Assembly: GCA_963745235.1 (NCBI GenBank)
Contig: CAVUXE010000084.1
Location: 27,507 to 91,506 of the forward strand
Length of the DNA stretch: 64,000 bases
Direction: 5' to 3'
Origin: an uncultured Spirochaetota bacterium
GTDB taxonomy: Bacteria > Spirochaetota > Spirochaetia > SZUA-6 > Fen-1364
Positions 26,125-56,063 of this stretch are shown piece after piece (within the stretch, counting starts at the first letter, position 1; each line of letters begins with the position of its first letter). The notes below the pieces were generated by a model. It saw only the letters and a program-made list of their open reading frames with translations, made no database searches and was not told the origin of the DNA. The translations under genes and the position numbers were made by a program.

Positions 26125-26904
26125 CTACTTCCACCCCTGTCCCTGGATGTATTGATAGATGTCCCCGGCATCCCTGTCGCTCACCTGGTCCGCCGGGAAC
26201 GCCGGCATCTGCCCGGCCGAGCCATTCGGCATGACGGGATTCCTTATGAAAGAGACAAAAGCGGCCTGGGTGGCCAGCTGCTTTGCCCCTTTCAACGGCA
26301 GCTCGGGCACAACGACGTTTGCGCCGCCCGGATGACAGGCAGCGCAGTTTGCCGCAAACAGCCGCGGCCCCAGGCGCGCGCCGGACGGAGCTGCCGGTGC
26401 CGCGCCAGTGCCGGCCCCCGCGCCCGTTGCCGGGGCGGCCGGAGCTGCCGCTTCCGCGGCCGGCTGGGAGCCTGCCCAGTTGCCGTACACGAGCCGGGCC
26501 CCATACCATCCCAGGCCCACCACGCCAAGCACCGCCAGCGCCCAGATAACCATCATGGGAGCGTTCCTGACCTTCACCTCGGACCCGAGGATGATTCCGG
26601 TCCCCAGGAGCAGCAGCACGCAGGTCGCCAGGATCATTTTCATCTTGATGGGTGGTATCAGCGCCCCCTTGAAGAAATGCAGCCAGTCTATCACGCCGAG
26701 CAGGATGGTCGGAAAGACGAAGATGAAAGCCAGGATGGATACGTGGCGCGCCGTGAGGTACAGGTTCTTCTTCTTGAAAATGACCGCCACGTAAAAGAAG
26801 AGAGCCCCGCCAATGACGAGCCCGATGGGGATGTGCGTGACCGGCGCGTGCAGCGGGTCCGTGAAGCCGATCCTTGCCAGGAGCTGGTAAATCGCATCGA
26901 TCAT
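26125..26904 (-). CDS. DUF2231-like membrane domain fused to a class I c-type cytochrome
   Basis: HAPVTHIPIG...GWYGARLVYG with 4 TM helices, an Ala/Pro linker, then CAACH and a distal Met (QMPAF). Confidence 0.8.
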   Translation of the reverse strand: MIDAIYQLLARIGFTDPLHAPVTHIPIGLVIGGALFFYVAVIFKKKNLYLTARHVSILAFIFVFPTILLGVIDWLHFFKGALIPPIKMKMILATCVLLLLGTGIILGSEVKVRNAPMMVIWALAVLGVVGLGWYGARLVYGNWAGSQPAAEAAAPAAPATGAGAGTGAAPAAPSGARLGPRLFAANCAACHPGGANVVVPELPLKGAKQLATQAAFVSFIRNPVMPNGSAGQMPAFPADQVSDRDAGDIYQYIQGQGWK

Positions 26905-27758
26905 GGGGTGCCTCCTCCTATGCCGGAAAAATCGACATCAGCCAGGCCTTTCGCGGCCGCCTGGCCGAAAATCTCCTTTGTCGCATGCGTTGCGGGAAGG
27001 GGCACGCCAAGCTCAAATGCGGCGTCGGACACGAGCTGGAGGTCCTTGTGCATCAGTCGGAGGGGGAACTCCGCGTCATAGCGCCCCGTGGCAAGCCTCT
27101 CGCGTTTTGCGGCCAGGAACGGGGCGGCCACTCCGCTTCCGACCAGCGCGTCCAGGAGCGCATCACGGCCGAAGCCCAGCGCCTCACCGAAGGCAAGCGC
27201 CTCGGAGAATGCCGCCATTGCGTTGCCCAGGAGCATGTTGTTCACCAGCTTCAGGGAGCAGCCCATGCCCGCGGCCCCCAGGTGCTTGATGGTTTTCCCC
27301 ATCACCGAAAGCAGAGGCCTGCACCTCTCCAGGTCCTTCGCGTCTCCGCCGACCAGGATCGTCAGCTCGGCCTTCTCAGCCGCCGGGAGGGAGCCCACCA
27401 CCGGGGCGTCGAGGAATGACACCCCCCGGGAAGCGGCTTCCCGCGCCATGCGACGCGCAGAGCCGGGCGTTACCGTGCTGCAGTCCACCCAGAGGGAACC
27501 CTTTGCCATGTGGTCAAGAAATCCATCGGCGCCGAGGGCAACGCCGGCCACGGCGTCGGGGCTGGTCAGCATGGTAAAGGCAACATCGCAACTCCGAGCC
27601 GCCTCAGCAGGCGTAGAGGCCAGCCTTGCGCCTTTCTGCACGAGTCCCTGGGCTTTCGCGGATGAACGGTTCCACACGGTCAGCTCGTGCCCGGCGCGCA
27701 GAAGGTTTGCAGCCATGCGGCTGCCCATGATCCCCAGACCCATGAATGCGATCTTCAT
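26901..27758 (-). CDS. 3-hydroxyisobutyrate dehydrogenase family oxidoreductase
   Basis: GLGIMG, DAPVVG, KLVNN and KDL. Confidence 0.92.
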   Translation of the reverse strand: MKIAFMGLGIMGSRMAANLLRAGHELTVWNRSSAKAQGLVQKGARLASTPAEAARSCDVAFTMLTSPDAVAGVALGADGFLDHMAKGSLWVDCSTVTPGSARRMAREAASRGVSFLDAPVVGSLPAAEKAELTILVGGDAKDLERCRPLLSVMGKTIKHLGAAGMGCSLKLVNNMLLGNAMAAFSEALAFGEALGFGRDALLDALVGSGVAAPFLAAKRERLATGRYDAEFPLRLMHKDLQLVSDAAFELGVPLPATHATKEIFGQAAAKGLADVDFSGIGGGTP

Positions 27759-28450
27759 CTGCTCTTCTCCCAGGATTCGACCGCCCTGCGCAGCGCGGCC
27801 GCGGATGGCGGATCCGACGGCGAAGTCCCTTCCAACACATCGGAAGGTTTGTCGATTTCCTTTCCATAATATGCCGCGTTCGCGTCCAGGTCCACGTCAA
27901 GGGAGACTCCCTCCAGGCTCACCCCCGCGAAGATTCCCCGCGTCCTGGCATAGCTGTAGATCTCCGCCCTCATGTCAGCGTCCGTGGATGCCGCCGCGGC
28001 CCTGCCAAGGGAGCCCGCCGCCAGGGACGCTCCGACCCCCATGGTGTAGCGGCCGCGCAGCACGGAGTCCACGCTCCCGCGCGTGCGGAAAAACAGGATG
28101 ATGTCCGCGGACTGAATGCCGACCTGCCAGCCGACGCTGGCCCCCGAAAGGGTGAGGAACAGCGGGCGGCTCCAGGTTCCCTCTCCCCGGCGGACAATGA
28201 GCACTCCTTTTCCATGCTGGCCGCCTATCACGAAGCCGACCTTCTTGACATCCGGAAAGACGGCGAGAGCGTATGTCTTTTTCATGAGCTGTTGAACAGC
28301 ATCCCGTTCGGGAACGTTCGTGATTGCGGTGAACACGTCCTGCGCATCCTCCACCTTGCGCGCCTGGGTCCGATCAGCGGCCACGGGTCCGGCGCCGAGC
28401 AAGAGGAGTGCGCAGATCGCCATCGGCGCAGAAGCGAATCGACGGACCAT
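27755..28450 (-). CDS. Ysc84/SYLF lipid-binding domain protein, exported
   Basis: KVGFVIGGQHGKG, GWQVGIQ, YARTRGIFAGVSLEG and a signal peptide. Confidence 0.88.
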   Translation of the reverse strand: MVRRFASAPMAICALLLLGAGPVAADRTQARKVEDAQDVFTAITNVPERDAVQQLMKKTYALAVFPDVKKVGFVIGGQHGKGVLIVRRGEGTWSRPLFLTLSGASVGWQVGIQSADIILFFRTRGSVDSVLRGRYTMGVGASLAAGSLGRAAAASTDADMRAEIYSYARTRGIFAGVSLEGVSLDVDLDANAAYYGKEIDKPSDVLEGTSPSDPPSAAALRRAVESWEKSR

Positions 28451-28647
28451 GACCAGGTTCCTCCCGAAAGGACAACTGCCGCGGCCCGCACGGAGTGCCG
28501 TGCGAGCTGCCACCGTGTGGAACGACTTCCTGTCCATATAGTACTTTGCCGGTCCGCCCACCGCAAAGCAAGAAATTCTCGCGCCTGCCACGGGCGCGCA
28601 TATCAACTCACCTCGCAGCGTACCGATAATGTCAGAAGGGGGACAGC

Positions 28648-30789
28648 GTGACAGTCTTCGGCAGGAGGTTCTCTCCTGCGATCCTCGTCTTTTCCGGCGT
28701 GTTGACGGTGCTCTGCGCCTCGACCCTCGTTTCACTGGTCCTTGCCGCTGCCGGCGCGCCAACTGCCCTCGGGGTCCCCGGGCGTTTTCTCCTTTCGAGC
28801 TTCTCCTGGGCTGCCTTCTTCGCGCCCCTGTACTTCCTGTGCGGGATACTTCTCCTTGGCGCCCCGGTCTTTCGACGCCGCTCGGCGCTGCTGCTCATGT
28901 TTTCCATCGTTCCCTTCCTCACCCTGAGCCTCATCCTGCGGGTCCTCCAGAGCCCTTCATCACTGATCCCGCAGCTCCTCGTGGATTCCTTCGGGGTGCT
29001 TCCCTCCGCGCTCCTGCTCTTCCTGCTCCTTGCCCTCGAGATGGTCTTCCTCCTGACCATGCCCTCGGGAAGGATTCGAGACATTCCCCGGAGCCCCCGG
29101 CCGCCGTCGAAAAAGCCGTTGGCGCTGCCATTGATCGCCGCGCCGCAGGCCGCACCCCTGCCGCCTTTGTCCCCGGAACCCGCATCGCTTGCGCCCCCGG
29201 AAGCCGTCCCGGTCGTCGAAGGCTTGGAGCCGGCCGCGGAAGCCATGGAGCCGAGGCGGCCTCCCCGGCGCGTTTCCGAGGAGCCGCGCAAGCGGCCTGC
29301 GGAGCCCGCCCTTGCCCCCGCCCCCGCGCGCGAGCAGGCCGAGCTTCCGTTCCCTCCCGAAAAAGGAGACAAAGCCGCATATGGCATCCCCGTGCACAAC
29401 GTGTTGAAGAACAGGGACGGGGATCAGTACTGGATCATCGACGATGAAACGAAGCGAGCCGCGCGCATCCTCACCGAGTCCCTGCGGGAGTTCAACATCG
29501 AGGCCGAGGTGACAGGGATCAGGAAAGGCCCGGTCATCACCCTTTTCGAAGTCCTTCCCGCGCCGGGGGTCCGCGTGTCGAAGATCGCGAACCTCGCGGA
29601 CAACATTGCTCTTCGTCTGGCCGCCCCCAGCGTGCGCATCGTGGCCCCCATCCCCGGCCGGCACGCGGTCGGCATCGAGGTGCCGAACAGGGTCCGCGCA
29701 ATCGTCTCCTTCAAGGAGATGATCTCACTCGATGTCATGCAGAAATCTCCCTACGAGATCCCTGTTGCCCTGGGCAAGGACATCCTGGGGGAGGCCCAGG
29801 TGATCGATCTGGTGCAGACGCCGCACCTCCTCATCGGCGGAGCCACCAACTCCGGCAAGAGCGTCCTGGTGAACTCCATCATCTGCTCCATCCTCTTTCG
29901 AAAGTCCCCCGACGAGGTGAGGCTTTTCCTGATCGACCCCAAGATCGTCGAGCTGAAGCTCTACAACGGCTGCCCTCATCTTCTGACCCCCGTGATCACG
30001 GAGCCGAAGAAGGCGTTCCAGGCCCTGCAGTACTGCATCTCGGAGATGGAGAGGCGCTACACGCTGCTGGACGCCCTGGGCGTTCGCGATGTCCGGGCGT
30101 TCAACAAGAAGGCCAGGAAGGAGCGGGTACAGCGCCTGCCGTACATCGTCATCGTGGTCGATGAGTTCGCCGACCTCATGGCGACCACCGGGAAGGAGCT
30201 CGAGTCCACGCTGGCAAGGCTTGCCGCCATGGCGCGCGCCGTGGGGATCCACATGGTCCTGGCTACGCAGCGGCCTTCCATTGACGTCATCACCGGCCTG
30301 ATCAAGGCGAACATCCCGTCGCGCATCGCTTTCATGGTGGCCAACAAGTTCGACTCCCGCATCATCATCGACGCGGTGGGCGCCGAGAAGCTCCTGGGCA
30401 AGGGCGACATGCTCTTTTCAGCGGCCTGGAACCCCTTTCCCACTCGCATCCAGGGCGCCTATATCGACGACGAGGAAACCGACTCCGTCACCGAGTACGT
30501 GAAGAAGATGGGGCCGCCGCAGTACATCGAGGATGAGGTCTTCTTCGATGACGAGGAAACGGGCGACTTCGAAGGGGAGCCGGGCAACGACCCGCTTTTC
30601 GAGCAGGCGCTCGGCATCGTGCTCGCCCAGGGCAAGGCATCCGCGTCCTACCTGCAGCGCAGGCTCAAGGTTGGATACAACCGGGCCGCCCGCCTGGTGG
30701 AGGAGATGGAAATGCGGGGCATTGTCGGGCCTGCGCAGGGCAGCAAGCCCCGGGAAATCATCCACGTGCCATCGAAAGGCGGCCAGTAG
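28648..30789 (+). CDS. ftsK: DNA translocase FtsK
   Basis: N-terminal TM helices, PHLLIGGATNSGKS, DEFADL, ATQRPS and gamma domain LQRRLKVGYNRAAR. Confidence 0.96.
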   Translation: MTVFGRRFSPAILVFSGVLTVLCASTLVSLVLAAAGAPTALGVPGRFLLSSFSWAAFFAPLYFLCGILLLGAPVFRRRSALLLMFSIVPFLTLSLILRVLQSPSSLIPQLLVDSFGVLPSALLLFLLLALEMVFLLTMPSGRIRDIPRSPRPPSKKPLALPLIAAPQAAPLPPLSPEPASLAPPEAVPVVEGLEPAAEAMEPRRPPRRVSEEPRKRPAEPALAPAPAREQAELPFPPEKGDKAAYGIPVHNVLKNRDGDQYWIIDDETKRAARILTESLREFNIEAEVTGIRKGPVITLFEVLPAPGVRVSKIANLADNIALRLAAPSVRIVAPIPGRHAVGIEVPNRVRAIVSFKEMISLDVMQKSPYEIPVALGKDILGEAQVIDLVQTPHLLIGGATNSGKSVLVNSIICSILFRKSPDEVRLFLIDPKIVELKLYNGCPHLLTPVITEPKKAFQALQYCISEMERRYTLLDALGVRDVRAFNKKARKERVQRLPYIVIVVDEFADLMATTGKELESTLARLAAMARAVGIHMVLATQRPSIDVITGLIKANIPSRIAFMVANKFDSRIIIDAVGAEKLLGKGDMLFSAAWNPFPTRIQGAYIDDEETDSVTEYVKKMGPPQYIEDEVFFDDEETGDFEGEPGNDPLFEQALGIVLAQGKASASYLQRRLKVGYNRAARLVEEMEMRGIVGPAQGSKPREIIHVPSKGGQ

Positions 30790-30815
30790 CGGACCGGGCG
30801 GGAGGCACGCAAAGC

Positions 30816-31985
30816 TTGGATTGGGCCGGCGAAAAAGTCCTGGTCATCGGGGGCTCCGGTTTCCTCGGCGCGAACCTGATTCGTTTCCTGGTCGGGGAAA
30901 AGTGCGTCCCCGCGAGGAACATCCGCTCATTCTCCGACAGGGCAAGTCGAGCCCTGAACGACCTCCCCGGGCTTGACGTGCGCAGCGGTGACATCCTCGA
31001 TCCAGCCGGCGTTGCCGAAGCCTGCAAAGGCCGCACGCTTGTGTTCCATGCGGCGGGGTCCACCACCTTTGACCCGCGGTCAAGGGAACGGCAGTGGTAT
31101 GTGAACGTCGAGGGAACACGAAACGTCCTGGAGGCAGTCGCATCCTCTGCGTCCATCCGCCGACTCTGCTACACGAGCACCGTGAACGTTCTTGGCTGCC
31201 CGTGGCCGGAAGGCTCAATCGGAACAGAGAGCTGCGATCCCTACGCCAGCCGGCCGAAGCTGCACTCGTTTGCGAGCCCGGCCGAAGCGCTTGCCCTTGC
31301 GGACGCCGTCCACCACGGCGGTGCGCGGCGCCGATGGTGGAAGCGCCTCCGGATAGCGTACTTCGACTCCAAGCTGGCCGCGCAGGAGCTCGTCAACCGG
31401 GCCGCGCTGGAGCAGGGCCTGGACGTCGTCTCCGTGCTGCCCGGCACGTTCTTCGGTCCCTCCGACGAGTTTCCCGGCCCGAGGCTCTTTCTCACGGGCG
31501 TGATGGAGAACAGGATCCCGGGTGTTCCGCGGGGAGGACTGCCCCTTGCTCACGTTCATGACGTGGCGCGTGGACACGTGTTGGCCGTGGAAAAAGGCAG
31601 ACCAGGAGCCACGTATATCCTCGGCGGTCTCCAGGAAGACAACCGCCGCTACGCCGACATGATGCGAATCATCTCCGAGGTGGTCAGTGAGAAGGAGCCG
31701 GGGAGGAAGATCAGGCATCGCTTTCGGGAAATTCCGGCCTCGGGAGCATGGTTGGCCGCGGCCCTGGACGAGGCATGGGCGGGCATCGTTGGACAACCGC
31801 CCGTCGTGACCAGGCAGGCGATTCGAGCCTCACGACGTGCCTTGTTCTATTCTTCAGCGCGGGCAGAGGGAGAGCTGGGCTACCGCGCGGCAAAGTCCTT
31901 TCGCGAGGCAGTGGGCGCGATGTACGACTCCCTGAGGCGGGCGGTGACAGATGAGGTCGCTCCTTTGCGCGGGGCCGCACCCTAG
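30816..31985 (+). CDS. NAD-dependent epimerase/dehydratase (dihydroflavonol reductase-like)
   Basis: GGSGFLG, NVEGTRNV, YFDSK and HVHDVA. Confidence 0.88.
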   Translation: MDWAGEKVLVIGGSGFLGANLIRFLVGEKCVPARNIRSFSDRASRALNDLPGLDVRSGDILDPAGVAEACKGRTLVFHAAGSTTFDPRSRERQWYVNVEGTRNVLEAVASSASIRRLCYTSTVNVLGCPWPEGSIGTESCDPYASRPKLHSFASPAEALALADAVHHGGARRRWWKRLRIAYFDSKLAAQELVNRAALEQGLDVVSVLPGTFFGPSDEFPGPRLFLTGVMENRIPGVPRGGLPLAHVHDVARGHVLAVEKGRPGATYILGGLQEDNRRYADMMRIISEVVSEKEPGRKIRHRFREIPASGAWLAAALDEAWAGIVGQPPVVTRQAIRASRRALFYSSARAEGELGYRAAKSFREAVGAMYDSLRRAVTDEVAPLRGAAP

Positions 31986-32688
31986 GGGGCGGCTACCACC
32001 ACCCTGTTGCGGCCCGTCCTCTTGGCTTCCAGGAGGGCCTGGTCTGCCGCGCGGATTGCCGCTTCGGGATCATCTCCGCGCTCCTCCGCGATGCCGATGC
32101 TGATGGTGACGCGGATCGAGCTTCCCGCAACATCGATTGCCGATTGCTCGATCACGGAGCGCAGCTTTTCCGCCGCGGCTGCCGCGCCGTTCGCGTCGGT
32201 CTCCGGGAGGAGGGCCAGGAACTCTTCCCCGCCCCACCGCACCTTGAGATCCTCGCTCCGCAGGGACGAGGCGAATGTCCGCGCCGTTTCCCGCAGGACC
32301 ATGTCCCCGACATCGTGGCCGTACTGGTCGTTCACCGCTTTGAACCTGTCGATGTCTCCCATGAGGATGCACAGGGACCTTTCGTGCCGGCGGGAACGGG
32401 AGAGCTCCGGCCGTACCCTGTCGAAGAACGCGCGGCGGTTCATGAGCCCCGTGAGATAGTCCGTGCGAACCGCCTCGTCAAGGGCGGCGTTGAGCTCTTT
32501 GAGCCTCAGCTGGTACCCGTCGCTGATGTGCACGGTCTTCATGAAAGTCCGGATCACGTGGGCGTAGCGGTCGGCGAGCTCGCGATACTGCTCCAGGAGA
32601 GGGTTCCGGTGTACGCGGGATCCGCCAGCACCTCCCGGGTTCGCTCGAGGAACGGGTCCGGATCCTGGGAGTCCCGTCTGAAGCTCAC
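31982..32688 (-). CDS. siaD: Diguanylate cyclase SiaD-like (one indel near 32605)
   Basis: GTG overlaps the siaC stop and reads ...VLADPAYTG. After a frame change it reads NPLLEQY...ISDGYQ...DYLTGLMNRR with an intact GGEEF. Confidence 0.85.
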
Positions 32689-33089
32689 TGGCCCGGTCCT
32701 TCCAGCACGATCTCGAATGGCAGCGTGACATCCTCCCGGAACTCCTCTGCCGCCTCCCGCGCCCGGTCATTCTCTTTGTCGCAGAACCACGCCACGCGCG
32801 CGGACCGCCCGCTCTTATGGGCGTTCTCCAGCAGGTCAAGGAGGTCGATCATGCACTTCGTGCTGCTCGTGTTGAGGTAGCTCAGGCGAAGCTCCAGGCA
32901 GAGCGGTGTTGAGCCTTCCCGCAGAAATTGCCGCGCCCACTCGATGATGGGGGCGAAGAAGTCGAAGGCGTTCTGCGGATAGGACTCCCCGGTCAGCTCC
33001 ATGACGCCGCGGCTCGCGTCCAGCCGCACCGTAGGTGAGGAGATGCTGCCCGCAATGATCAGATCGTTCACCATCGGCGCTCCATTCAT
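32685..33089 (-). CDS. siaC: SiaC (DUF1987) phospho-switch protein
   Basis: GESYPQNAFDFF, YLNTSSTK and AEEFRED. Confidence 0.9.
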   Translation of the reverse strand: MNGAPMVNDLIIAGSISSPTVRLDASRGVMELTGESYPQNAFDFFAPIIEWARQFLREGSTPLCLELRLSYLNTSSTKCMIDLLDLLENAHKSGRSARVAWFCDKENDRAREAAEEFREDVTLPFEIVLEGPGQ

Positions 33090-33634
33090 ATGATCACTGA
33101 CAGGCTGAAGAACCGGTACCTGTCGTCGATTTCCCGGAAGCTCCAGGAAAGGGGCCGGGTTGCCCGCCGCGCCACGTCTATCAGCCCGAGGCCGGCGCCT
33201 CCCGCGGGAAGGCGCGGCCCGCGAAGCCTCTCCTTGTACAGGGCCTTGAGCTCCGCCTTGTCCATGGCGCGCAGCTCTTCGAGGCGCAGCGCCAGGGCGC
33301 CGACGTGGGCCTGGTCCATCATGTTCCCGGCGCTGACGGCGTAGGCGTTGCCCTGCCTGCCGATGGCCAGCGTCCCGGCGTCCAGCCCGGCCTCGTCCTT
33401 CCTGTCTTTCAGCCTGCCCGTGTACGCCTGCACGTTCTGTGCAAGCTCCACGAAGACGGCAAACACGTCGGAGACGGCGGAGCGGGAGGTGGTTTCCGTT
33501 TCCAGGTAGCGCTTCACGGCGATCCCGATCTCCTCAATGATGCTGTGGGAAAACGGGCCGTTGAAACAGATGAGGACTTCCCCGTCGATGAAGCTCTTCC
33601 TGAGACCGTAGAGGTCCAGGGCTTGGGTTCGCAT
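33086..33634 (-). CDS. siaB: SiaB-family protein kinase
   Basis: FNGPFSHSIIEEIG, FVELAQNV and GGAGLGLIDVARR. Confidence 0.88.
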   Translation of the reverse strand: MRTQALDLYGLRKSFIDGEVLICFNGPFSHSIIEEIGIAVKRYLETETTSRSAVSDVFAVFVELAQNVQAYTGRLKDRKDEAGLDAGTLAIGRQGNAYAVSAGNMMDQAHVGALALRLEELRAMDKAELKALYKERLRGPRLPAGGAGLGLIDVARRATRPLSWSFREIDDRYRFFSLSVII

Positions 33635-33636
33635 TC

Positions 33637-35610
33637 TCAGTCTCCTCTTTCCGCGACGCGGAACCCGATGATGGTGATGTCGTCGCGCTGCGGGAGCGAG
33701 CCGCGCCACTTTTCAATTGCGGCTTCGATGCTCGAAAGCTGCGCGGCCAGGGGGAGGGACCAGCAGGAGGCCATGAGGATGGCCAGCCGATCGCTTCCGA
33801 ATCCGAATCCGCGCGGACCCCCGGCCAGGTCCAGGATTCCGTCGGTGGACAGGTAGAACGTGGTGGCGTCCAGGGGTACGTGAGTAACAGAAAGCTGGCC
33901 GTCGGGAGCCCGGCGGCGCGACCCGATTGACCCGCGGCCTGCCCGGATGCGCCGTGCTCCCCGTTCGCCGGCGCAGAAAAGATCGATTCCCGCCCCCGCG
34001 TAGCTCAGCGTGTTTGCATTCGGCCTGATGCGGCACAGGGCAATGTCCAGGCCTCGCTGGCTTCCCGGGCCGCCAGCATCCTCACCGAGGTTGCTCCGTA
34101 TGCTCACATCCAGCTCGTCGATGAGGGCGGCCGGGTCGACTCCAGCCCTGCGGGCCGCAATGGCCTCCAGAGCGGACTCCGTGTACATGCTCATGAGGGC
34201 GCCCGAGACTCCGTGCCCCGTGCAGTCCGCTATGCCCAGGAGAAACGAGTCACCATCATCGCGGAAGAAGTAGAAGTCTCCGCCAACGCGATATCTCGGG
34301 CGAAAGAGGATGAACCGCTCGGGCAGGCGTCGTTCCAGGGCCCGCCCGCCGGGCAGGATGGAGCGCTGGATGATGTCCGCATACTCGAGGTCCTCCACCA
34401 TGCGGGCGTTCGCCTCCGCAAGCTGCTGCGTCCGCTCCCTGACCTGGCGCTCCAGGTTTTCCGTGGCCGCCTGAACCTCGCCGGCCATCGTGGAGAAGGA
34501 GGTGGCGAGTGCGCCGATCTCCCCGACCCCCGCCGCCGGAAGGGCAAGGTCGTACCGGCCCCTGGCCATCTCCCCGGCTGCCGTCGTCAGGGCGCCGAGA
34601 GGCATCAGGATGAGCCGATCCACTGACAATGCCAGCGCCACCAGGAGCAGCGCAAGGGCGGCCAGGAAGACCACCAGGATGGCCGCGAAGCTTCGGACCG
34701 TGAGAAACCTGGCAAGATCCACGGCGGCAATGATCGTCCAGCCTCCAAGGCCGGGGAGGGCGGAGGCCGCCACGAGGCTTCGTGAGCCCTCGAAGCTGAT
34801 CCTCGTGGTGCGGACCGTCGTGGGGTCCGCGCCGGCCCCGCGGAGAAGCTCGCTCAGCGCCGTCCTGTCATGCGGGGAACCTGCCAGGTCAACTGCCCTC
34901 ACCTTGGCTTTCCCGGTCCAGGTCCGCGCGTTTCGCTCCAGGTAGTCGAGGTCCCGGGAGGCCGTGATGCTCCCCTGGTCATCGACGAGCATGACGGACA
35001 GTCCTTCCCGGGCCGCGCGGCCGAGGTCGGCAAGAAAGGCCGTGATGTCGATTGCGCTTCCCGCAACGGCAATCGGGCGGCCGCCGTCACGCACCACGCA
35101 GTTGATCCACACCTTCGTGACATGGAGGTTGGTGTCGTAGTCGAGGTTGAGCTCCCAGTCCTTCTGCAAGCGGAGCGTGCGGAAGAACCAGGCGTCTGAC
35201 AGCGCGCCGGGACTGAGCGTGACGACGACCCGCCGCCCGTCCGACGGCTCGTTGTAGTAGGTGTTGCTGGAGGCAATGGCCACGAAATAGCTGTGGTCCC
35301 CGAAGGCCCGACGGTAGCTCTCCAGCTCTGCCCGGGCTGCAGCGGCCTTTACGGGATTTCCCTCATCCAGGATCCACGCCTTGACGACAGGAGAGTCAGC
35401 CAGCTTGCGGGCCAGCACGACCTCCGGCTCCACCATGCCCATGATCCGCGCCGTTGCCAGCTGCGTGTTGGTCTGGGCAAACCGGGTCCCCAGGGACTCG
35501 ACAATCCCCTGCGCCGTGGCGAAGAAGAGGATGAAGGATATGATCCCCGCGGCCAGGAACAGGGTGAAAGCGAAAAGGAGAAACCGTGTCTTGAGCCCCC
35601 AGGAGCGCAT
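33637..35610 (-). CDS. siaA: SiaA: extracytoplasmic sensor + HAMP + PP2C/SpoIIE phosphatase
   Basis: Two TM helices, HAMP, VGGDFY, ADCTGHGVSGA, STDG and RDDIT. Confidence 0.9.
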   Translation of the reverse strand: MRSWGLKTRFLLFAFTLFLAAGIISFILFFATAQGIVESLGTRFAQTNTQLATARIMGMVEPEVVLARKLADSPVVKAWILDEGNPVKAAAARAELESYRRAFGDHSYFVAIASSNTYYNEPSDGRRVVVTLSPGALSDAWFFRTLRLQKDWELNLDYDTNLHVTKVWINCVVRDGGRPIAVAGSAIDITAFLADLGRAAREGLSVMLVDDQGSITASRDLDYLERNARTWTGKAKVRAVDLAGSPHDRTALSELLRGAGADPTTVRTTRISFEGSRSLVAASALPGLGGWTIIAAVDLARFLTVRSFAAILVVFLAALALLLVALALSVDRLILMPLGALTTAAGEMARGRYDLALPAAGVGEIGALATSFSTMAGEVQAATENLERQVRERTQQLAEANARMVEDLEYADIIQRSILPGGRALERRLPERFILFRPRYRVGGDFYFFRDDGDSFLLGIADCTGHGVSGALMSMYTESALEAIAARRAGVDPAALIDELDVSIRSNLGEDAGGPGSQRGLDIALCRIRPNANTLSYAGAGIDLFCAGERGARRIRAGRGSIGSRRRAPDGQLSVTHVPLDATTFYLSTDGILDLAGGPRGFGFGSDRLAILMASCWSLPLAAQLSSIEAAIEKWRGSLPQRDDITIIGFRVAERGD

Positions 35611-35615
35611 GATTC

Positions 35616-48099: not shown

Positions 48100-48116
48100 G
48101 CCCGGAGGAGGGCGGA

Positions 48117-49209: not shown

Positions 49210-49309
49210 CAGCGTCTCCTCCCTCATCAGCGTCGATTGTAACCCTCTCGCCGTCCGGGAAAAGTCGCTGCGGTCATGATTTTTGCCGGGGGATATCAGG
49301 ACAAGCTCG

Positions 49310-49327
49310 TGTCGAAGCCTTCTGACA
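49310..49327. promoter_or_regulatory. 18-bp palindrome, candidate NarL/GacA-family binding box
   Basis: Minus strand reads TGTCAGAAGGCTTCGACA, upstream of the 49209 gene. Confidence 0.6.
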
Positions 49328-49340
49328 GGCAGCGGGTGCG

Positions 49341-49975
49341 TCAGTCCAGGAGGCCATGCTCGACCGCGTAGCGCACGAGCTCCGCGGTGTTTTTGAGGCT
49401 CAGCTTGGAAAGGACGCGTGAACGGTAGGTCCCGACCGTTGCCGGGCTGAGGAAGAGCTCGGAGGCGATCTCGGTCACTCCCTTGCCCGAGGCAAGCAGG
49501 CACAGCACCCGGTATTCACGGTCGGAGAGCTTCTCGTACGCGGGGCGGGCTCGCTTGCCGGAGACCTCTTCGGCAAGCTGCTCCGCAAGCGACGGGCTGA
49601 TGTATTTCCCCCGGTGCCGAGCTTGCGGATTGCCGTGAGAAGCTCTGCCGGCTCGCTGCCCTTGACCAGGTACCCGGATGCCCCCGCCCGAATGGCGCGC
49701 ATTCCGAGCTGGCTCTCCGTGTGCATGCTCATGACGAGAACGGGTATTTTCGGGTAATCCCGCGAAAGCGTCTTCAGGAGCTCGATTCCGTCCTGGCCGC
49801 CGGGCAGGCAGATGTCGAGGATGATGACGTCGCACCCGTGGCTGGCCAGCCGGGAGATGAGCTCCTGGCCGCTTGCCGCCTCCTCCTCGATGCTGATGTC
49901 CTTCTGTTTCTGGATGATCATCCTGACGCCTTCGCGGACGATGGGATGGTCATCACAAATGATTACCCGTATCAC
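49341..49975 (-). CDS. NarL/LuxR-family response regulator, UvrY/GacA-like (indel in a G-run near 49610)
   Basis: DDHPIVREG, GASGYLVK, LSDREYRVL and TVGTYRSRVLSKL. Confidence 0.92.
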
Positions 49976-50077
49976 CGCGTCTCCTTGCTGCCCCAGGTGA
50001 GATCACCGATTGTAGTGCAAAGGCGGCGCGATGTCACCATGCGGCCGCGCGTGCGCCTGCTTGCGGCGCACTCCCCC

Positions 50078-51106
50078 TCAGGGGGCAGCGGCCCGGTACT
50101 GGATGATGACGGGGCCGCTGGGGGCCGCCGCGCCTTCCGCCGGTTCCACCGTCACTTCCACTGCCTCGGGAAGCTTCGCGAGCGCCTGGTTCTCAGCGAT
50201 GATGACCGCGTTCCCGTCCGCTCCAGGGGCTGCACGGCCGACCGGGACCCACGCGCCGTTGCTCAGGACCCACGCCTGGTATGTGGTTGCGGGGGCAAGC
50301 GGATCCAGGTTGTGGAGCGTGATCACCGCCAGCGCCGTCCCGGTCCTGCCCCGGTACGCCCCGTGCGTGCGGGCAGGCGCACCGGGACCGGCCGCCAGGT
50401 GCAGCGTCGTGATGTCGCTTGCCGTGACGAAAGCCAGGGCGCGGTCGGTCTTCTGCGCGACCATCTCCTGGTGGCGGGCGCGGACCGCGACGCCCACGGA
50501 GAGCGCCAGCACCACAACGGCCACTCCCAGGGGAGCAAGGAGGAAGCGGAGCTTCCTGATGCCTGACCTGATTCGGGTCTTCACGGTCCCGAGGGGGAGC
50601 CGCAGGGTCTCCGCCACCTGGTCATGCGTCAGGTCTTCGAAGAACGCCAGGCTGAGCGCCTGCCGCTGACCGGGGGACAGCCTGTCCACTGCTGACTGGA
50701 CAGCTTCCTTGCGAAACTCCTGCCACGCAGTCTCAACGGGCCCTTCGTTCCCGTCTGCAAGATCCTCCACAAGCTCGCCGCCGACATCCGGGTCCAGCTG
50801 CGGTCTGCGGCTGCGCCGGCGCAGCTCGTTCAGCACCCTGAAATGTGCCACCTGGAGGAGCCATGGGCGGAAGGGCCCCCGGCGCGGGTCGTAGGTGTGT
50901 GCCTTGCGCCACAGTGCCAGGAAGACCTCCTGGACGATGTCCTCCGCGGCGCCGGTGTCGAGGCTCTGGGCAGCAATATGAAACACAAGGGGCGCGTACC
51001 GCGAGTACAGCGGCGTCAGCGCCTCGGGCTCGCCATCGGCCAGCCGGCGGGCCAGCTCTTCATCTGTCCTGGTGTCCCGCTGTGCACTATCCCTGCCAGG
51101 CATCAT
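50078..51106 (-). CDS. ECF sigma factor (SigK-like) fused to a TM helix and RskA-like extracytoplasmic domain
   Basis: AEDIVQEVF and GTVKTRIRSG, then directly LLAPLGVAVVVLALSVGVAV, then YQAW and VTVEPAEG..PSGP. Confidence 0.88.
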   Translation of the reverse strand: MMPGRDSAQRDTRTDEELARRLADGEPEALTPLYSRYAPLVFHIAAQSLDTGAAEDIVQEVFLALWRKAHTYDPRRGPFRPWLLQVAHFRVLNELRRRSRRPQLDPDVGGELVEDLADGNEGPVETAWQEFRKEAVQSAVDRLSPGQRQALSLAFFEDLTHDQVAETLRLPLGTVKTRIRSGIRKLRFLLAPLGVAVVVLALSVGVAVRARHQEMVAQKTDRALAFVTASDITTLHLAAGPGAPARTHGAYRGRTGTALAVITLHNLDPLAPATTYQAWVLSNGAWVPVGRAAPGADGNAVIIAENQALAKLPEAVEVTVEPAEGAAAPSGPVIIQYRAAAP

Positions 51107-51113
51107 GAATGTC

Positions 51114-51141
51114 AGTACACCGGATGCACGCACCCGGATGT
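51114..51141 (-). promoter_or_regulatory. Candidate ECF (SigK-like) autoregulatory promoter
   Basis: ACATCC-N16-TGTACT, 7 nt before the sigma ATG, with no SD. Confidence 0.4.
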
Positions 51142-51209
51142 ATGCGCCCCCGATCTAAGGTATCACATCGGGACGGGCCGAGGCACGGAAAGTTGGTTAC
51201 TATAGTGCT

Positions 51210-51968
51210 ATGCCGCTGACACCACTTCAGATCAAAGACCTTCTGGATGAGAACAGGACGCACGACTGCGAGGGAGTCGGAAAGGACCGGGTCTGCGTTC
51301 GAATCGCCTCGATTGCGGACCTGCCGTCGCGCTTCGGGCAGTTCCAGGTGGTCGCGTTCTGGAACAACCGCGACGGGAAAGAGCACGCGGCCTTCGTGCA
51401 CGGGGACGTCTCCGGCAGGGAAGAGGTGCCCGTGCGGATGCACTCCGAGTGCCTCACGGGAGACGCCATCGGCTCCCTGCGCTGCGATTGCCGCGACCAG
51501 CTGGAGGCATCCCTGCGCGCCCTGGGCTCCATGGAAAGCGGGATGCTGCTGTATCTTCGCCAGGAGGGACGCGGGATCGGCTTCGTCAACAAGATCAGGG
51601 CCTATGGCCTCCAGGACCACGGCTACGACACCGTCGAGGCGAACCTTGCCCTCGGCTTCCGGGACGACGAACGCGACTACAGCATCGCGGCGCACATGAT
51701 CTGGTCCCTTCACGTGAAGTCGGTGAGGTTGATGACGAACAACCCGCGCAAGATTGACGGCCTCACGTCCCTGGGGGTCCGCGTCTCGGAGCGCATCCCG
51801 CTCATCATCCAGCCCAATGAGTACAATCGGTTCTATCTCCAGACGAAGGCAAACAAGTCAGGACACCTCCTGGATCCGGAAGGCAAGGAGCACCTGCTGG
51901 AGCAGATCGACAGGCCCGTCATTGACGGAATGACCTCGGACCAGGCCGCAGTCCTTCAGGAGGAGTGA
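51210..51968 (+). CDS. ribA: GTP cyclohydrolase II
   Basis: RMHSECLTGD...RCDC, QEGRGIG and MTNNP. Confidence 0.96.
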   Translation: MPLTPLQIKDLLDENRTHDCEGVGKDRVCVRIASIADLPSRFGQFQVVAFWNNRDGKEHAAFVHGDVSGREEVPVRMHSECLTGDAIGSLRCDCRDQLEASLRALGSMESGMLLYLRQEGRGIGFVNKIRAYGLQDHGYDTVEANLALGFRDDERDYSIAAHMIWSLHVKSVRLMTNNPRKIDGLTSLGVRVSERIPLIIQPNEYNRFYLQTKANKSGHLLDPEGKEHLLEQIDRPVIDGMTSDQAAVLQEE

Positions 51969-52735
51969 TGGCGCCAGCTCCCCGGAAGGACCTCCCCATC
52001 ATGGCCTTCGAATCCGCGGGGGCGTGGGAGGCGTGGCTCGCCGGGAACCATTCCCGTTCTTCGGGCATCTGGCTGAAGCTCGCGAAGCGCGACAGCGCGG
52101 CGCCATCCGTGTCGTACGCCGAGGCGCTGGAGGTGGCACTCTGTTACGGATGGATCGACGGCCAGAAGGAGAGGTTGGATGCATCCTGGTGGCTGCAGAA
52201 GTTCACCCCGCGCGGGCCAAAGAGCATCTGGTCACGGATCAACAGGGAGAAGGCGGATGCCCTGGCGGCACGCGGCCTGATGAAGCCCGCCGGGCTTGCG
52301 GCAATTGCGAGCGCCAGGAAAGACGGCCGCTGGGACAAGGCCTACGCCTCGCAGAAAGCAGCTGCCGTGCCGCCGGACCTGAAGGCGGAGCTCGACAAGG
52401 ACCCCCGGGCGCGGACGTTCTTTTCAACCCTGAGCAGCGTGAACAGGTATGCAATCCTGTTCAGGCTCCACAACGCGAAGAAGCCGGAAACGCGCGCGCG
52501 GCGGCTTCGACGTTTCATGGACATGCTGAGAAGAGGGGAGACTATTCACCCGCAGGAGAAAGCACAGGCTCCGGCGAGCGCAAGCTCCCCGTCGCGTCGA
52601 AGACCCGATGATGCGAACAAGGACACAGAAGGAGTTGCACGCATGCGGCATCCCGCATCGAAGCGCGCGCGAGGCACGGGGTCCAGCAGGCGCCGCCGGG
52701 ATTCTGACGAAACTGCTCACCGCGGACGCCCGTGA
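51968..52735 (+). CDS. YdeI/OmpD-associated family protein
   Basis: ALCYGWIDG, FTPR...WS.IN and AKKPETRARR. Confidence 0.9.
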   Translation: MAPAPRKDLPIMAFESAGAWEAWLAGNHSRSSGIWLKLAKRDSAAPSVSYAEALEVALCYGWIDGQKERLDASWWLQKFTPRGPKSIWSRINREKADALAARGLMKPAGLAAIASARKDGRWDKAYASQKAAAVPPDLKAELDKDPRARTFFSTLSSVNRYAILFRLHNAKKPETRARRLRRFMDMLRRGETIHPQEKAQAPASASSPSRRRPDDANKDTEGVARMRHPASKRARGTGSSRRRRDSDETAHRGRP

Positions 52736-52844
52736 AGACGGCGCGATCACAGCGGGCCATGAGAGCCGTGCTGCGGCACCCCGCGTCAGACCGCCGCGCC
52801 GGGCGTCTGGCCGCGGCGCCCCGCTGGTCAGTATCATAGTCTGG

Positions 52845-53693
52845 ATGGCGAAGGAGCTTCGCAGATTCACGGCGGACGACCTTGCCCGGTTCAACGGGGA
52901 GAACGGGACACCCATCTACATCGCCTTCGAAGGCCGGGTCTTCGACGTGACGGCAAGCAAGTTCTGGCGGGGCGGCACTCACATGAAGCGTCACCCCTCC
53001 GGCACGGACCTCACGGACCAGATGTCGGCTGCGCCCCACGACACGGAGGTGCTGGATCGTTTCCCGCAGATCGGCATCCTGGTTTCACCGGCAGGTGCGG
53101 CGGAAGTCGCGGCCCGGTCCGCCGGGAAGGCGGAAGCTCCGTCCCCCGCGCAGTCGGATGCGCCCACCACGGCGGAAACGGCGCTGCCGGGCCTGCCGCA
53201 GGCCCTCGAACGGTTCCTGGATCTGCACCCGTTTTTCCGCCGGCACCCGCACCCAATGACCGTTCACTTCCCCATCGTCTTCTTCATCTTCGCGCCCCTG
53301 TTCACGGTCCTGTACCTGGCGACGGGAAACGGGGGCTTCGAGTTCACCGCGCTCAATTGCCTCGCTGCCGGGCTTCTCTTCTCCCTCGTCGTCATCCCCA
53401 CCGGCCTGATCACATGGTGGGTCGGTTACGGGGCCCGGCCCATGAGGGCCGTGACAATAAAGATCGTCCTGTCAGTGTGCCTGTTCGTGGATGGGCTCGT
53501 GCTCCTTCTGTGGCGCCTCGGTGACCCGGGAGTCATAACGCGGCCGGCGGGGCCGAGTCTTCTCTTCCTGATACTTGATTTCCTCCTTCTCCCGATGGTC
53601 GTCGTGGTGGCCTGGTATGGGGCCACGCTGACTTTCCCGCTGGCAAGGAAAAGGAGGCCCGGGTCTCACATACCCGGAGCTCACGCCCAATGA
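52845..53693 (+). CDS. Cytochrome b5 heme domain fused to a DUF2231-like membrane domain
   Basis: F.GRVFDVT..W.GG.H..H.SG.DLT...APH, then HPMTVHFPI and four TM helices. Confidence 0.85.
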   Translation: MAKELRRFTADDLARFNGENGTPIYIAFEGRVFDVTASKFWRGGTHMKRHPSGTDLTDQMSAAPHDTEVLDRFPQIGILVSPAGAAEVAARSAGKAEAPSPAQSDAPTTAETALPGLPQALERFLDLHPFFRRHPHPMTVHFPIVFFIFAPLFTVLYLATGNGGFEFTALNCLAAGLLFSLVVIPTGLITWWVGYGARPMRAVTIKIVLSVCLFVDGLVLLLWRLGDPGVITRPAGPSLLFLILDFLLLPMVVVVAWYGATLTFPLARKRRPGSHIPGAHAQ

Positions 53694-55057
53694 GCGTTTT
53701 CACCGACACCCTGCTCCTCTCCCGGCTCCAGTTCGGCATGACGACGCTCTACCACATGATCTGGCCGACTCTCTCGGTGGGCTTGAGCCTCACCCTTGTC
53801 ATCCTGGAGGCGCTCTGGCTGCGCACGGGTGACCCGGCCTGGTACCGTCACCTGCGCTTCTGGAGCCGGCTGCTCCTCCTCAACTTCTCCGTCGGCGTGG
53901 CCACCGGCCTCGTCATGGAGTTCCAGTTCGGCACCAACTGGGAGCCCTTCACGGAGGCGACGGGCGGCTTCTTCGGAAACATCCTTGGCCTCGAAGGCAC
54001 CCTCGCGTTCATGCTGGAGGCCGGGTTCCTGGGAATCATGATGTTCGGCTGGCGCAAGGTTCCCCGCGGCCTGCACATGGTCTCCACCGTGCTGGTTGCC
54101 TTCGGGGCATCCCTGTCCGCATTCTGGATCCTCGTTGCCAACTCCTGGATGCAGACCCCGGCGGGCGGGCATTTCGAGCATGGACGGTTTGTCGTGGATA
54201 ATTTCCTTGGCGCCCTTTTCAACTCCGACATGATCACCTCGACGACGCACATGTGGGCGGCGTGCATCGAGACCACGGCTTTCGTCGTGGGAGGAATCAG
54301 CGCGTGGTATATCCTGCGCGGGCGCCAGCCCGAGTTCTTCCTGAGAACACTGAAGGTCGCCCTTGTGCTTGCCCTTGTCATGACCCCTCTGCAGATCTTT
54401 CTCGGGGACGCGCAAGGTCTCCACATCTATCGGACCCAGCCGGAGAAGCTTGCGGCCATGGAATCGCACTGGAAAACCAATCCGCCGGGCGCAGGGGCGG
54501 CCTTCAACATCATTGCGTGGCCTGACGACGCGGGGGAACGCAACTCTTTTGAAGTCCAGGTGCCTTACCTCCTCAGCCTGCTGGAGACCCGTTCGTTCAC
54601 GGGACAGGTGAAGGGGCTTTCGGAGTTTCCCCCCGACGCCCGGCCGCCCGTCGTGATCCCGTTCTATTCTTTTCGGATCATGGTGTTGATCGGTTTCCTC
54701 CTGTTCGGGCTCATGGTGTGGACACTTGTCGTGTGGCTGCGCGGCGGCCTTGCCCTTTCGCGCATCCGGACCAGGCGGGCGCTCCTGCGCGCCTGGATGT
54801 GGTCCCTTCCCCTGGGGTACATCGCCGTTGAGACGGGGTGGCTCGCCCGCGAAGAGGGCCGGCAGCCGTGGCTCATCTACAGGGTGCTGCGGACCGCAGA
54901 TGCCGTGAGCTCGCTTCCTCCCTGGGTTGTCGGCATGTCCCTGCTGGCGCTCTTCGCCATCTATGCCCTTCTCACCGTGTTCTTCCTGATCTATGCGGGG
55001 CGGATGCTTTCGAAAGGGCCCGACCTTTCCCTGGTTCCTCCCGGGGAAGGAAGCTGA
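53690..55057 (+). CDS. cydA: Cytochrome bd quinol oxidase subunit I (short Q-loop)
   Basis: RLQF....YH, EFQFGTNW, NSWMQTP, QPEKLAAME and GRQPW. Confidence 0.96.
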   Translation: MSVFTDTLLLSRLQFGMTTLYHMIWPTLSVGLSLTLVILEALWLRTGDPAWYRHLRFWSRLLLLNFSVGVATGLVMEFQFGTNWEPFTEATGGFFGNILGLEGTLAFMLEAGFLGIMMFGWRKVPRGLHMVSTVLVAFGASLSAFWILVANSWMQTPAGGHFEHGRFVVDNFLGALFNSDMITSTTHMWAACIETTAFVVGGISAWYILRGRQPEFFLRTLKVALVLALVMTPLQIFLGDAQGLHIYRTQPEKLAAMESHWKTNPPGAGAAFNIIAWPDDAGERNSFEVQVPYLLSLLETRSFTGQVKGLSEFPPDARPPVVIPFYSFRIMVLIGFLLFGLMVWTLVVWLRGGLALSRIRTRRALLRAWMWSLPLGYIAVETGWLAREEGRQPWLIYRVLRTADAVSSLPPWVVGMSLLALFAIYALLTVFFLIYAGRMLSKGPDLSLVPPGEGS

Positions 55058-55058
55058 A

Positions 55059-56063
55059 ATGGAACAGCTCCTTCCGGCCGTGTGGTTTGCGATCCTCGGC
55101 TTCATCCTCCTTCTTTACACGATGCTGGACGGCTTCGACCTGGGAGTGGGGATTGTCTCCCTCCTGGTGAAGGACGACCGGGAACGCGGACTCCTGATGG
55201 CCAGCCTGGGAAGCATCTGGGACGCCAACGAGACGTGGCTCGTTCTCTTTGGCGGGATCATTTTCGGCGCGTTTCCCGCCGTCTATGGCCTGGTGATGAC
55301 CGCCCTGTACATTCCGCTGATCGGCATGCTCATCGGCCTCATTTTTCGCGCGGTTTCATTCGAGTTCCGCGAGCACGCGAAGAGCAAGAAGCCCTGGGGC
55401 CTTGCTTTCGGGTGGGGAAGCCTTCTCACCGCCGTGAGTCAGGGGTTCGCGTTCGGTGGGCTGCTGTGGGGCGTCACTATCACCACCGGCAAATACACGG
55501 GAGGGGTTTTCGACTGGCTTTCCCCCTTTTCCATTATCACCGCGGTTGCGGTTGTCGGCGGATACGTGATGTTCGGATCGACATACATCATCATGAAAAC
55601 GCAGGGTCCCGTGGCCGGATTCGGGCGACGCATGACCGGATGGGGGGCCGGGATCGCGGCCCTGGGCGGTCTTGCTGATACCATTCTCGCAGTCGGGAAA
55701 TACCCGTTTCTCTCCCAGAAATGGACGGCAATTCCCGGCTCTTTTCTCACGATCGTCCCGTTCGTCCTGGGACTTGGTGCCTTCGGGATGATGCTGCTCG
55801 CAATCAGGCGGGGTCGGGAGACGCTTCCTTTTGTCTGCGCGCTCCTGTTCGCATTTTTCGGCTACGTTGCGCTGTCCGCGAACTACTTCCCCATCATCGT
55901 GCCCCCCGGACTCACCGTCTATGAGACCGCGGCCCAGCCCCTCACCCTCCGTTCGATGCTGATCGCTGTCTCGGTGGCGCTCCCCGTCCTGCTTGCCTAC
56001 AACATCCTGCAGTACTGGATCTTCCGCGGCAAGACGACCGGGTCCCTGTACGGAGGCGAATAG
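55059..56063 (+). CDS. cydB: Cytochrome bd quinol oxidase subunit II
   Basis: LDGFDLGVG, WDANETWLV and FRAVSFEFR. Confidence 0.96.
   Translation: MEQLLPAVWFAILGFILLLYTMLDGFDLGVGIVSLLVKDDRERGLLMASLGSIWDANETWLVLFGGIIFGAFPAVYGLVMTALYIPLIGMLIGLIFRAVSFEFREHAKSKKPWGLAFGWGSLLTAVSQGFAFGGLLWGVTITTGKYTGGVFDWLSPFSIITAVAVVGGYVMFGSTYIIMKTQGPVAGFGRRMTGWGAGIAALGGLADTILAVGKYPFLSQKWTAIPGSFLTIVPFVLGLGAFGMMLLAIRRGRETLPFVCALLFAFFGYVALSANYFPIIVPPGLTVYETAAQPLTLRSMLIAVSVALPVLLAYNILQYWIFRGKTTGSLYGGE

Follow-up and report, generated by a model that had tools for sequence, protein, structure and literature searches.

A membrane domain of the family DUF2231, fused to a class-I cytochrome c, is encoded directly before coxA, the gene for subunit I of an A-family oxidase, in an uncultured member of the Spirochaetota (Spirochaetia; SZUA-6; Fen-1364). 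The stretch of DNA analyzed here (the window) comprises 64,000 nt of contig CAVUXE010000084.1 (GCA_963745235.1, positions 27,507-91,506 of the forward strand), with a GC content of 64%. It also contains a second fusion gene, which joins a cytochrome b5 to DUF2231 and overlaps cydA of a bd oxidase (Table 1). From domain content, conservation, synteny and phyletic pattern we infer, with good support, that the first fusion feeds electrons to the oxidase as its tethered and sole cytochrome c, with DUF2231 as a conserved partner of this enzyme.

The DUF2231-cytochrome c fusion and its oxidase

The protein encoded before coxA (P0001) matches DUF2231 (PF09990) with 28.9 bits over residues 16-142, above the gathering cut-off of 26.4 bits, and Cytochrome_CBB3 (PF13442, cut-off 27 bits) with 40.7 bits over residues 176-253. 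With a further match to PF00034 (27.7 bits) and a CxxCH motif, its C-terminal part is a class-I cytochrome c. Both fusion genes of the window had been proposed in a first-pass annotation made from the DNA letters; the two open reading frames (ORFs) and the short motifs quoted for them are present, and Pfam confirms their domains. In the AlphaFold2 model of P0001 the membrane domain consists of four helices (residues 19-43, 52-77, 84-107, and 115-140). The residues H19, H24, D73, W74, and K89 are invariant across 33 aligned members of the cox clade, whatever the partner, and in the model they lie at those ends of helices 1-3 that are predicted to face the periplasm, where cytochrome c and Sco1 must be.

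The oxidase that is encoded next to the fusion contains the features of a CuA enzyme. CoxII has the motif C-x3-C-x3-H-x2-M and the upstream histidine of the A-family CuA site, and contains neither a CxxCH motif nor a cytochrome c domain, so that it is not of the caa3 type. As CuA is present and a haem domain is not, the enzyme is by design a cytochrome c oxidase and not a quinol oxidase. In the source genome (G000; 5.85 Mb in 104 contigs, completeness 85.7%) PF13442 matches only the fusion gene, which thus encodes the sole Pfam-type cytochrome c of the genome; it is on this ground that we take the fusion to be the tethered donor of the oxidase. The genome contains 15 ORFs with a single CxxCH and none with several, and a CcsA-type cytochrome c maturation gene is present.

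Subunit I is not intact in the window, where coxA lacks one base between 24976 and 24975 in comparison with its relatives and continues in another frame. The relatives have the gene in a single frame (an intact orthologue of 562 aa is found in locus L130), and the frameshift may be an assembly error or reflect a recent pseudogene. A comparison with sequencing runs reached a best word share of 0.17, which corresponds to relatives of the source genome only.

The fusion had been described as heading the cox operon. It does lie directly before coxA, but it is not the first gene of the unit: the stop of a 3-hydroxyisobutyrate-dehydrogenase-like gene overlaps its start by 4 nt. Of 29 loci that were fetched from relatives for neighbourhood counts, 7 have a gene of this type before the fusion. 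The operon of the window has no Sco gene, and Sco is encoded on another contig of the genome. Judged from the position of the COX4_pro match, the true subunit IV gene is probably shorter than the ORF listed in Table 1, at approximately 87 aa, as in L130. A scan of positions 22700-29000 for promoters and terminators performed no better than on shuffled sequence (2 vs 1.1 and 7 vs 4.4).

Association of DUF2231 with cox genes in other genomes

The set of relatives comprised 81 genomes, among them the family of the source genome (f1, 24 genomes) and the families f60 (8), f61 (17), and f62 (17). All 24 genomes of f1 have a homologue of the fusion, as do 5/8 of f60 and 3/17 of f61, and the 17 genomes of f62 have none. 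Among the 29 fetched loci, coxA lies beside the fusion in 20, directly adjacent in 11 and with a Sco1/SenC-like gene in between in 9; of the remaining 9 loci, one lies at a contig end and another belongs to genome G269. We also analyzed 251 Spirochaetota genomes drawn evenly from the phylum. Of the 25 non-own PF09990 matches, 9 lie no more than 3 kb from COX1, those of family f44 just downstream of it, where well under one would be expected by chance (estimated for 1-3 COX1 loci in genomes of 2-5 Mb). The association with cox that had been proposed is therefore kept well beyond the source genome.

The arrangement of the operon varies, and four forms could be distinguished. In form A (the window and G256) the fusion is combined with a CoxII without haem, and in form B (G252) with Sco and a CoxII that has its own cytochrome c. 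Form C, found in the families f37 and f56, consists of a stand-alone DUF2231 gene, Sco, a caa3-type CoxII and a UbiA-family gene that presumably encodes haem O synthase. In form D (family f41) DUF2231 is fused to Sco1; such fusions are represented by L137, P0245, P0251, and P0252. A CoxII with PF00034, a caa3 feature, is also encoded in the relatives' loci L127 and L131. Across these forms DUF2231 is constant and the cytochrome c domain moves between DUF2231 and CoxII. We therefore read DUF2231 as more than an anchor: in several Spirochaetota families it is the first gene of the operon even where the cytochrome c is located on subunit II, and in one lineage it is fused to Sco1.

Complex III in genomes with the fusion

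Respiration with a CuA oxidase is thought to require a quinol:cytochrome c oxidoreductase, either the cytochrome bc1 complex or alternative complex III (ACIII). As markers we used a bc1-type cytochrome b of at least 100 bits and NrfD (PF03916), respectively. NrfD has no match in G000 (85.7% complete) or in any of the 24 genomes of f1, and none of these 24 genomes contains a cytochrome b at or above 100 bits. The only candidate for a bc1/b6f-type protein in G000 is a cytochrome b-like ORF of 31 bits on contig C83, with no Rieske protein beside it. We considered this gene as the missing reductase and rejected it: it occurs in only 14/24 genomes of f1, and G273 (96% complete) and G274 (99%) have the fusion and cox without a gene of this type. 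The ORF (C83:3996-5622) encodes a protein of 219 aa (PF13631, 52 bits) and is followed by a gene for a 320-aa membrane protein without a Pfam match.

A second COX1 match in G000, on contig C13, was rejected as an oxygen reductase, since it is a qNOR-like ORF of 816 aa that lies, by sequence reading, beside a hybrid-cluster-protein-like ORF. This locus (C13:245-6869) also contains an ORF that reads, by sequence alone, as a Crp/Fnr-type regulator, and the set resembles one for nitric oxide detoxification.

The families differ in a consistent manner. In f62, all 17 genomes have cox, none has the fusion, and each contains a cytochrome b that scores 113-119 bits or more. Conversely, five genomes of the families f37, f41, and f56 with DUF2231 beside cox (four of them 94-97% complete, G140 85%) have neither a cytochrome b (0/5) nor NrfD (0/5). 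In the phylum sample, 8 genomes have an A-type COX1 and neither marker, and DUF2231 is present in all 8, compared with 7 of the 46 that have a marker; in family f17, COX1 and NrfD are both present in 33/33 genomes and DUF2231 in 0/33. The anticorrelation with bc1 and ACIII that the first-pass annotation had asked for is seen at the level of families in the Spirochaetota, with exceptions that are discussed below. Several families of this phylum thus have the oxidase and neither of the two complexes, and DUF2231 is the one unexplained, conserved extra gene of their operons. Its function would fill a gap in the annotation of respiratory chains in wetland and sediment bacteria.

The DUF2231 family and its fusion partners

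The two membrane domains of the window had been called homologous. When aligned directly they share 19% identity (BLASTP E = 0.004), and it is their shared Pfam family rather than this weak pairwise score that establishes the homology: both exceed the cut-off for PF09990, with 28.9 bits on the cox side and 54.8 bits on the cyd side, and they have motif residues in common. The motif P-x-H-x4-H and two glycines are invariant across five DUF2231 domains (four from G000 and one from L087), and the motif, at the start of helix 1, is also invariant in 28 b5-type and 33 cox-type sequences. The genome has four DUF2231 genes, of which the other two are stand-alone and located away from oxidases. One of these (C53:158310-158726) is a paralogue of the cox-clade domain, 47% identical to the membrane part of the fusion; here and in L003 it is flanked by ORFs that resemble endonuclease III and ArgR genes, by sequence alone, and it forms the second match in many genomes of the genus.

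The family is large: with a profile built from these five sequences, 4209 representative clusters are matched at E up to 0.001. Fusion partners were scanned in 77 of the best 150 representatives, those of approximately 190 residues or longer. A C-terminal class-I cytochrome c is present in 45 of them (in one case together with a cupredoxin), PSCyt1 in 4, DOMON in 5 and an N-terminal b5 in 3, and 20 have no second Pfam domain. All fusion partners found, Sco1 included, are small redox or copper proteins, and nearly all carry one electron at a time. In 8 distant DUF2231-cytochrome c fusions the Cys/Cys/His of the CxxCH motif and a methionine are invariant. The neighbourhoods of the distant fusions, which come from metagenome contigs, many of them short, include no steady neighbour, the largest neighbour cluster being found in 17/73 loci and having no Pfam match. 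Such free-standing genes would also fit a general role between quinol and cytochrome c. A protein of approximately 320 aa without a Pfam match, possibly an outer-membrane barrel, is encoded at L177:47-1009 and in 16 other metagenome loci, and lies directly upstream of the distant fusions in 11/73 loci.

Structural comparison provided few clues. A fold search with the model of the b5-DUF2231 protein matched its membrane part to generic four-helix bundles only, all in the range of a common arrangement (Z-scores of 13.2 for designed proteins, 12.3 for CydA 7d5i, 10.8 for caa3 2yev_D, and 10.1 for cytochrome b6). A sequence search of the PDB with the DUF2231 profile gave no match at E up to 10, so that no solved relative was found there, and the ESM Atlas gave no usable match. 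The suggestion that the domain is a haem- or quinone-interacting module thus gains no support from the fold search, with its generic bundles, or from a solved relative. A relation to haem A synthase (CtaA/COX15, PF02628) was rejected at the level of sequence, with an hhalign probability of 0.2% compared with 1.1% for CoxIII as control. When the membrane domain of the G256 DUF2231 protein was modelled in complex with CoxA and CoxIII, the prediction reached a score of 0.00 and a mark of 0.32, which is no verdict either way. Literature searches by the family name and by PF09990 found no publication on the family.

The cytochrome b5-DUF2231 fusion and its neighbours

The start of the second fusion gene agrees with the N-termini of 27 homologues. 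Its AlphaFold2 model contains four long helices, with predicted local distance difference test values (pLDDT) above 90 within them, and the residues R-H-P-H-P-M-T-V-H-F-P are invariant in the 28 aligned b5-type sequences. The b5 domain aligns without gaps to cytochrome b5M of a Hadesarchaeon (6NZX, E = 3e-23). Its residues H46, H50, and H65 correspond to the haem histidines of that protein, and H46 and H65, the axial pair, are invariant in the 28 sequences, which identifies the domain as a cytochrome b5M. In a preprint on cytochrome b5M, the axial histidines are H42 and H61 in the numbering used there (10.1101/2021.11.30.470528).

The sum of lysines and arginines in the b5 type is 8.6 for the N-terminus, loop 2, and the C-terminal tail, compared with 2.4 for loops 1 and 3, and no signal peptide is present. 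As the positive-inside count is thus reversed and a signal peptide is missing, the b5 domain and the histidine motif are both predicted to be cytoplasmic.

In the window, the gene belongs to a plus-strand series that consists of a GTP cyclohydrolase II gene, a YdeI/OmdA-like gene, b5-DUF2231, cydA, and cydB; the last 4 nt of the fusion gene (53690-53693) are also the first of cydA. The true start of cydB may lie downstream, as its Pfam match begins at residue 27. We compared the neighbourhoods of b5-DUF2231 in 80 loci, 19 from Spirochaetota and 61 from other organisms, mostly Desulfobacterota. Salinispira pacifica, a cultured spirochaete, is among the named carriers of a homologue. cydAB follow the gene in 8/80 loci and in one more in part, all of them from Spirochaetota. 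The proposed association with the bd oxidase is therefore lineage-specific, and the protein does not behave as an accessory subunit of this enzyme.

The steady neighbour is a gene for an unassigned UbiA-type prenyltransferase, which is found directly upstream of b5-DUF2231 in 42/61 non-spirochaete loci, and downstream of it in at least 5/19 Spirochaetota loci (L014, L018, L021, L028, and L072). A UbiE/MenG-type methyltransferase gene is located within 3 kb in 17/61 non-spirochaete loci, and a polyprenyl synthetase gene lies upstream in L014 and L018; in L014 the order is polyprenyl synthetase, b5-DUF2231, UbiA, cydA, cydB. The common thread of these loci is the isoprenoid quinone and not the oxidase. 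In bd oxidase, quinol is taken up close to the outside of the membrane, so that a b5 domain in the cytoplasm is unlikely to serve as electron entry to it, the role that had been put forward for the fusion. We read the b5 fusion as tied to the quinone pool, through its biosynthesis or its redox state, instead. Four paralogues (approximately 40% identity) of the UbiA-like prenyltransferase that is linked to b5-DUF2231 in Desulfobacterota are encoded in G000, on contigs C45, C53, C81, and C8, and the one on C45 adjoins a UbiE-like gene.

Proposed mechanism and alternative explanations

As neither bc1 nor ACIII was found, the most likely mechanism for the reduction of the tethered cytochrome c is oxidation of quinol at a site on the periplasmic side of DUF2231. 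That the domain oxidizes quinol is a real possibility, falling somewhat short of probable. In the mechanism envisaged, (mena)quinol would be oxidized at this site, its protons would be released outside, and the electrons would pass to haem c and from there to CuA of the A-family oxidase. On the cyd side, the corresponding arrangement would be a b5M domain with bis-histidine ligands on a DUF2231 domain of inverted topology. More generally, but only tentatively, DUF2231 may be a minimal four-helix quinone/quinol site which, when joined on one membrane face to a carrier of single electrons (cytochrome c, DOMON, cupredoxin, or b5), replaces complex III with the product of a single gene. Such proteins would supply the A-type oxidases of Spirochaetota, and the b5 form, which faces the cytoplasm, would be their mirrored counterpart and act on the quinone pool from the inner side. 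DUF2231 is in this respect a testable candidate for a new route of electrons to oxygen in a wetland spirochaete.

Several observations weigh against this mechanism. The lineages concerned are few and akin, so that the counts overstate their independence and describe a pattern rather than a statistic, and the source genome is 85.7% complete, with coxA frameshifted in the present assembly. DUF2231 has no known signature for the binding of cofactors or quinones. Exceptions to the phyletic pattern exist: in G063, DUF2231 lies near cox and both markers are present (a cytochrome b of 124 bits, and NrfD), G150 and G203 have NrfD matches, and in G311 the fusion occurs alongside a strong cytochrome b. 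In G269 (96% complete), G285, G286, and G300 the fusion is present and no COX1 was found. The FtsK and SLT genes that enclose the locus in the window also enclose the fusion in G269 (locus L133, contig C4), where the cox genes are gone. Moreover, cox genes occur in the fetched flanks of only 2/80 loci with distant DUF2231-cytochrome c fusions (35-44% identity), so that only the spirochaete clade has the gene at the head of oxidase operons. Finally, other factors are missing as well. Cox11, Caa3_CtaG, and PCuAC each have 0/5 matches in G000, G256, G273, G186, and G244. CtaA is not found in G000 and has two weak or partial matches in the 24 genomes of f1, compared with 14/17 genomes of f62; in G290, G304, and G311, ctaA lies beside cox and DUF2231 elsewhere. 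As these proteins are absent too, the argument from a missing complex III is not unique, and DUF2231 could replace any of several functions.

Among the alternatives, a role in copper delivery and oxidase assembly has the most in its favour, and we consider it rather unlikely. The periplasmic His/His/Asp cluster would then bind copper and, together with Sco1, metallate CuA or CuB in place of the missing Cox11, CtaG, and PCuAC; the fusion to cytochrome c would be secondary, with DUF2231 a mere anchor for it. If true, DUF2231 would be a third kind of copper-insertion factor beside Cox11 and CtaG. Copper handling is the better explanation of the fusions of DUF2231 to Sco1 and of the adjacency of the two genes: a Sco-like gene adjoins DUF2231 in 9/29 loci of relatives and in L086-L090, and is found within approximately 1 kb in L094-L096. 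It leaves unexplained, however, how the only cytochrome c is reduced where bc1 and ACIII are both missing, why 57 of the 77 longer representatives are fused to a one-electron carrier, and why cytoplasm-facing b5 fusions lie beside quinone genes and a copper-free bd oxidase. The operon of the window, moreover, does without a Sco gene of its own.

It is unlikely that DUF2231 is a passive anchor or structural subunit, without chemistry of its own, that holds cytochrome c, Sco1, or DOMON or docks them to the oxidase, with the cytochrome c reduced by a donor yet to be recognised. The long disordered Ala/Pro linker does resemble that of tethered shuttle cytochromes such as Rhodobacter cytochrome cy, the partners are varied, the distant fusions lie in unrelated neighbourhoods, and G269 retains the gene without cox. 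For an anchor, however, a single helix would do, and the five residues invariant in all 33 sequences are kept regardless of the partner. In caa3-type operons the stand-alone first gene has nothing to anchor. In addition, the histidine motif is always on the side of the fused redox domain, and that it follows its redox partner in both orientations argues against a plain anchor.

In eukaryotic DOMON-b561 proteins, cytochrome b561 relays electrons in or across the membrane, and DUF2231 could by analogy be a membrane cytochrome whose histidines ligate a b-type haem, perhaps across a dimer, for relay to the fused carrier. This is very unlikely: two to three histidines are conserved at the start of helix 1, the DOMON and b5 fusions parallel known haem-haem relays, and b5M genes of the Candidate Phyla Radiation adjoin those for ferric-reductase-type membrane cytochromes, according to a preprint (10.1101/2021.11.17.468889), but the conserved histidines are all at the same helix end, the distant members examined have R, Q, or Y in place of H76, no second histidine pair for a trans-membrane relay is present, and the profile comparison with haem A synthase reached the probability of 0.2% given above.

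Comparison with known systems

Quinol oxidation at DUF2231, which we favour, has counterparts among known proteins. In the NrfD/PsrC/ActC and NrfH/NapC types, a membrane subunit without cofactors oxidizes quinol in combination with a periplasmic haem or Fe-S partner. The proposed principle is the same, in that quinol would be oxidized at the periplasmic face and an adjoining carrier would take the electrons. There is no sequence relation to these proteins, however; NrfD is absent, DUF2231 has four helices only, and its quinol site is a proposed one.

As a donor, the fusion resembles Rhodobacter cytochrome cy and Bacillus CccA and CccB, which receive their electrons from bc1 and are attached through one helix or through a lipid. 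Like them it would be a class-I cytochrome c, tethered to the membrane by a flexible linker and serving a CuA oxidase. It differs in that its anchor is the conserved four-helix DUF2231 domain and that neither bc1 nor ACIII was found. The caa3 oxidases (Thermus, 2YEV) likewise have a built-in cytochrome c donor, and relatives of the source organism have exactly this form; in the window, by contrast, haem c is located on the separate DUF2231 protein and the CoxII of 206 aa is free of haem.

The b5 fusion is similar to cytochrome b5M (6NZX and 6VZ6) in its match to 6NZX and in that both axial histidines are kept. The solved proteins are free-standing domains of 78 residues, whereas in the window the b5 part continues into a membrane domain of the DUF2231 family. 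The b5M-DUF2231 architecture was not met in the accessible parts of two preprints on b5M (10.1101/2021.11.17.468889 and 10.1101/2021.11.30.470528).

Features of the window

The genes and domains discussed above are listed in Table 1.

Table 1. Genes and protein domains of the cox and cyd loci, in window coordinates.
Feature	Position	Strand	Basis or remark
Ysc84-like ORF	27755-28762	-	first in the minus-strand series ending with coxII
3-hydroxyisobutyrate-dehydrogenase-like NAD(P) oxidoreductase	26901-27758	-	PF03446, 173 bits
DUF2231-cytochrome c fusion (P0001, 259 aa)	26125-26904	-	Pfam, AlphaFold2
P0001, four-helix membrane domain	residues 1-142, nt 26479-26904	-	Pfam/AlphaFold2
P0001, Ala/Pro-rich flexible linker, about 35 residues	residues approx. 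143-174	-	AlphaFold2, pLDDT < 50
P0001, class-I cytochrome c with CxxCH	residues ~175-259, nt 26128-26382	-	Pfam
coxA, N-terminal 5/6	24766-26106	-	PF00115, 359.9 bits, COX1 profile positions 1-329; frame lost after ~residue 380
coxA, C-terminal part, other frame	24512-24952	-	PF00115, 102.2 bits, COX1 profile positions 336-436
coxIII (short form)	23994-24515	-	PF00510, 30.5 bits
ORF with prokaryotic subunit IV	23536-24096	-	COX4_pro PF03626, 38.4 bits, residues 107-175 (~nt 23572-23778)
coxII, 206 aa	22903-23523	-	PF00116, 53.5 bits
Cytochrome b5M-DUF2231 fusion, 282 aa	52845-53693	+	Pfam, AlphaFold2
b5 domain of the 282-aa fusion	~residues 1-80, nt 52845-53084	+	Cyt-b5 PF00173, 31.7 bits (residues 9-72)
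Membrane domain of the 282-aa fusion	~residues 129-265, nt 53229-53639	+	DUF2231, 54.8 bits (residues 136-264); linker precedes
cydA (bd oxidase subunit I)	53690-55057	+	PF01654, 529 bits
cydB (bd oxidase subunit II)	54993-56063	+	PF02322, 271 bits

Two further gene sets were observed on the minus strand. Adjoining the cyd genes, positions 56970-60582 encode a PFL-like glycyl-radical enzyme of 883 aa and a radical-SAM activase. Positions 31982-35610 contain a SiaA/B/C/D-like signalling set, comprising a SpoIIE phosphatase with HAMP and Cache domains, a DUF6272 protein, SiaC, and a GGDEF cyclase.

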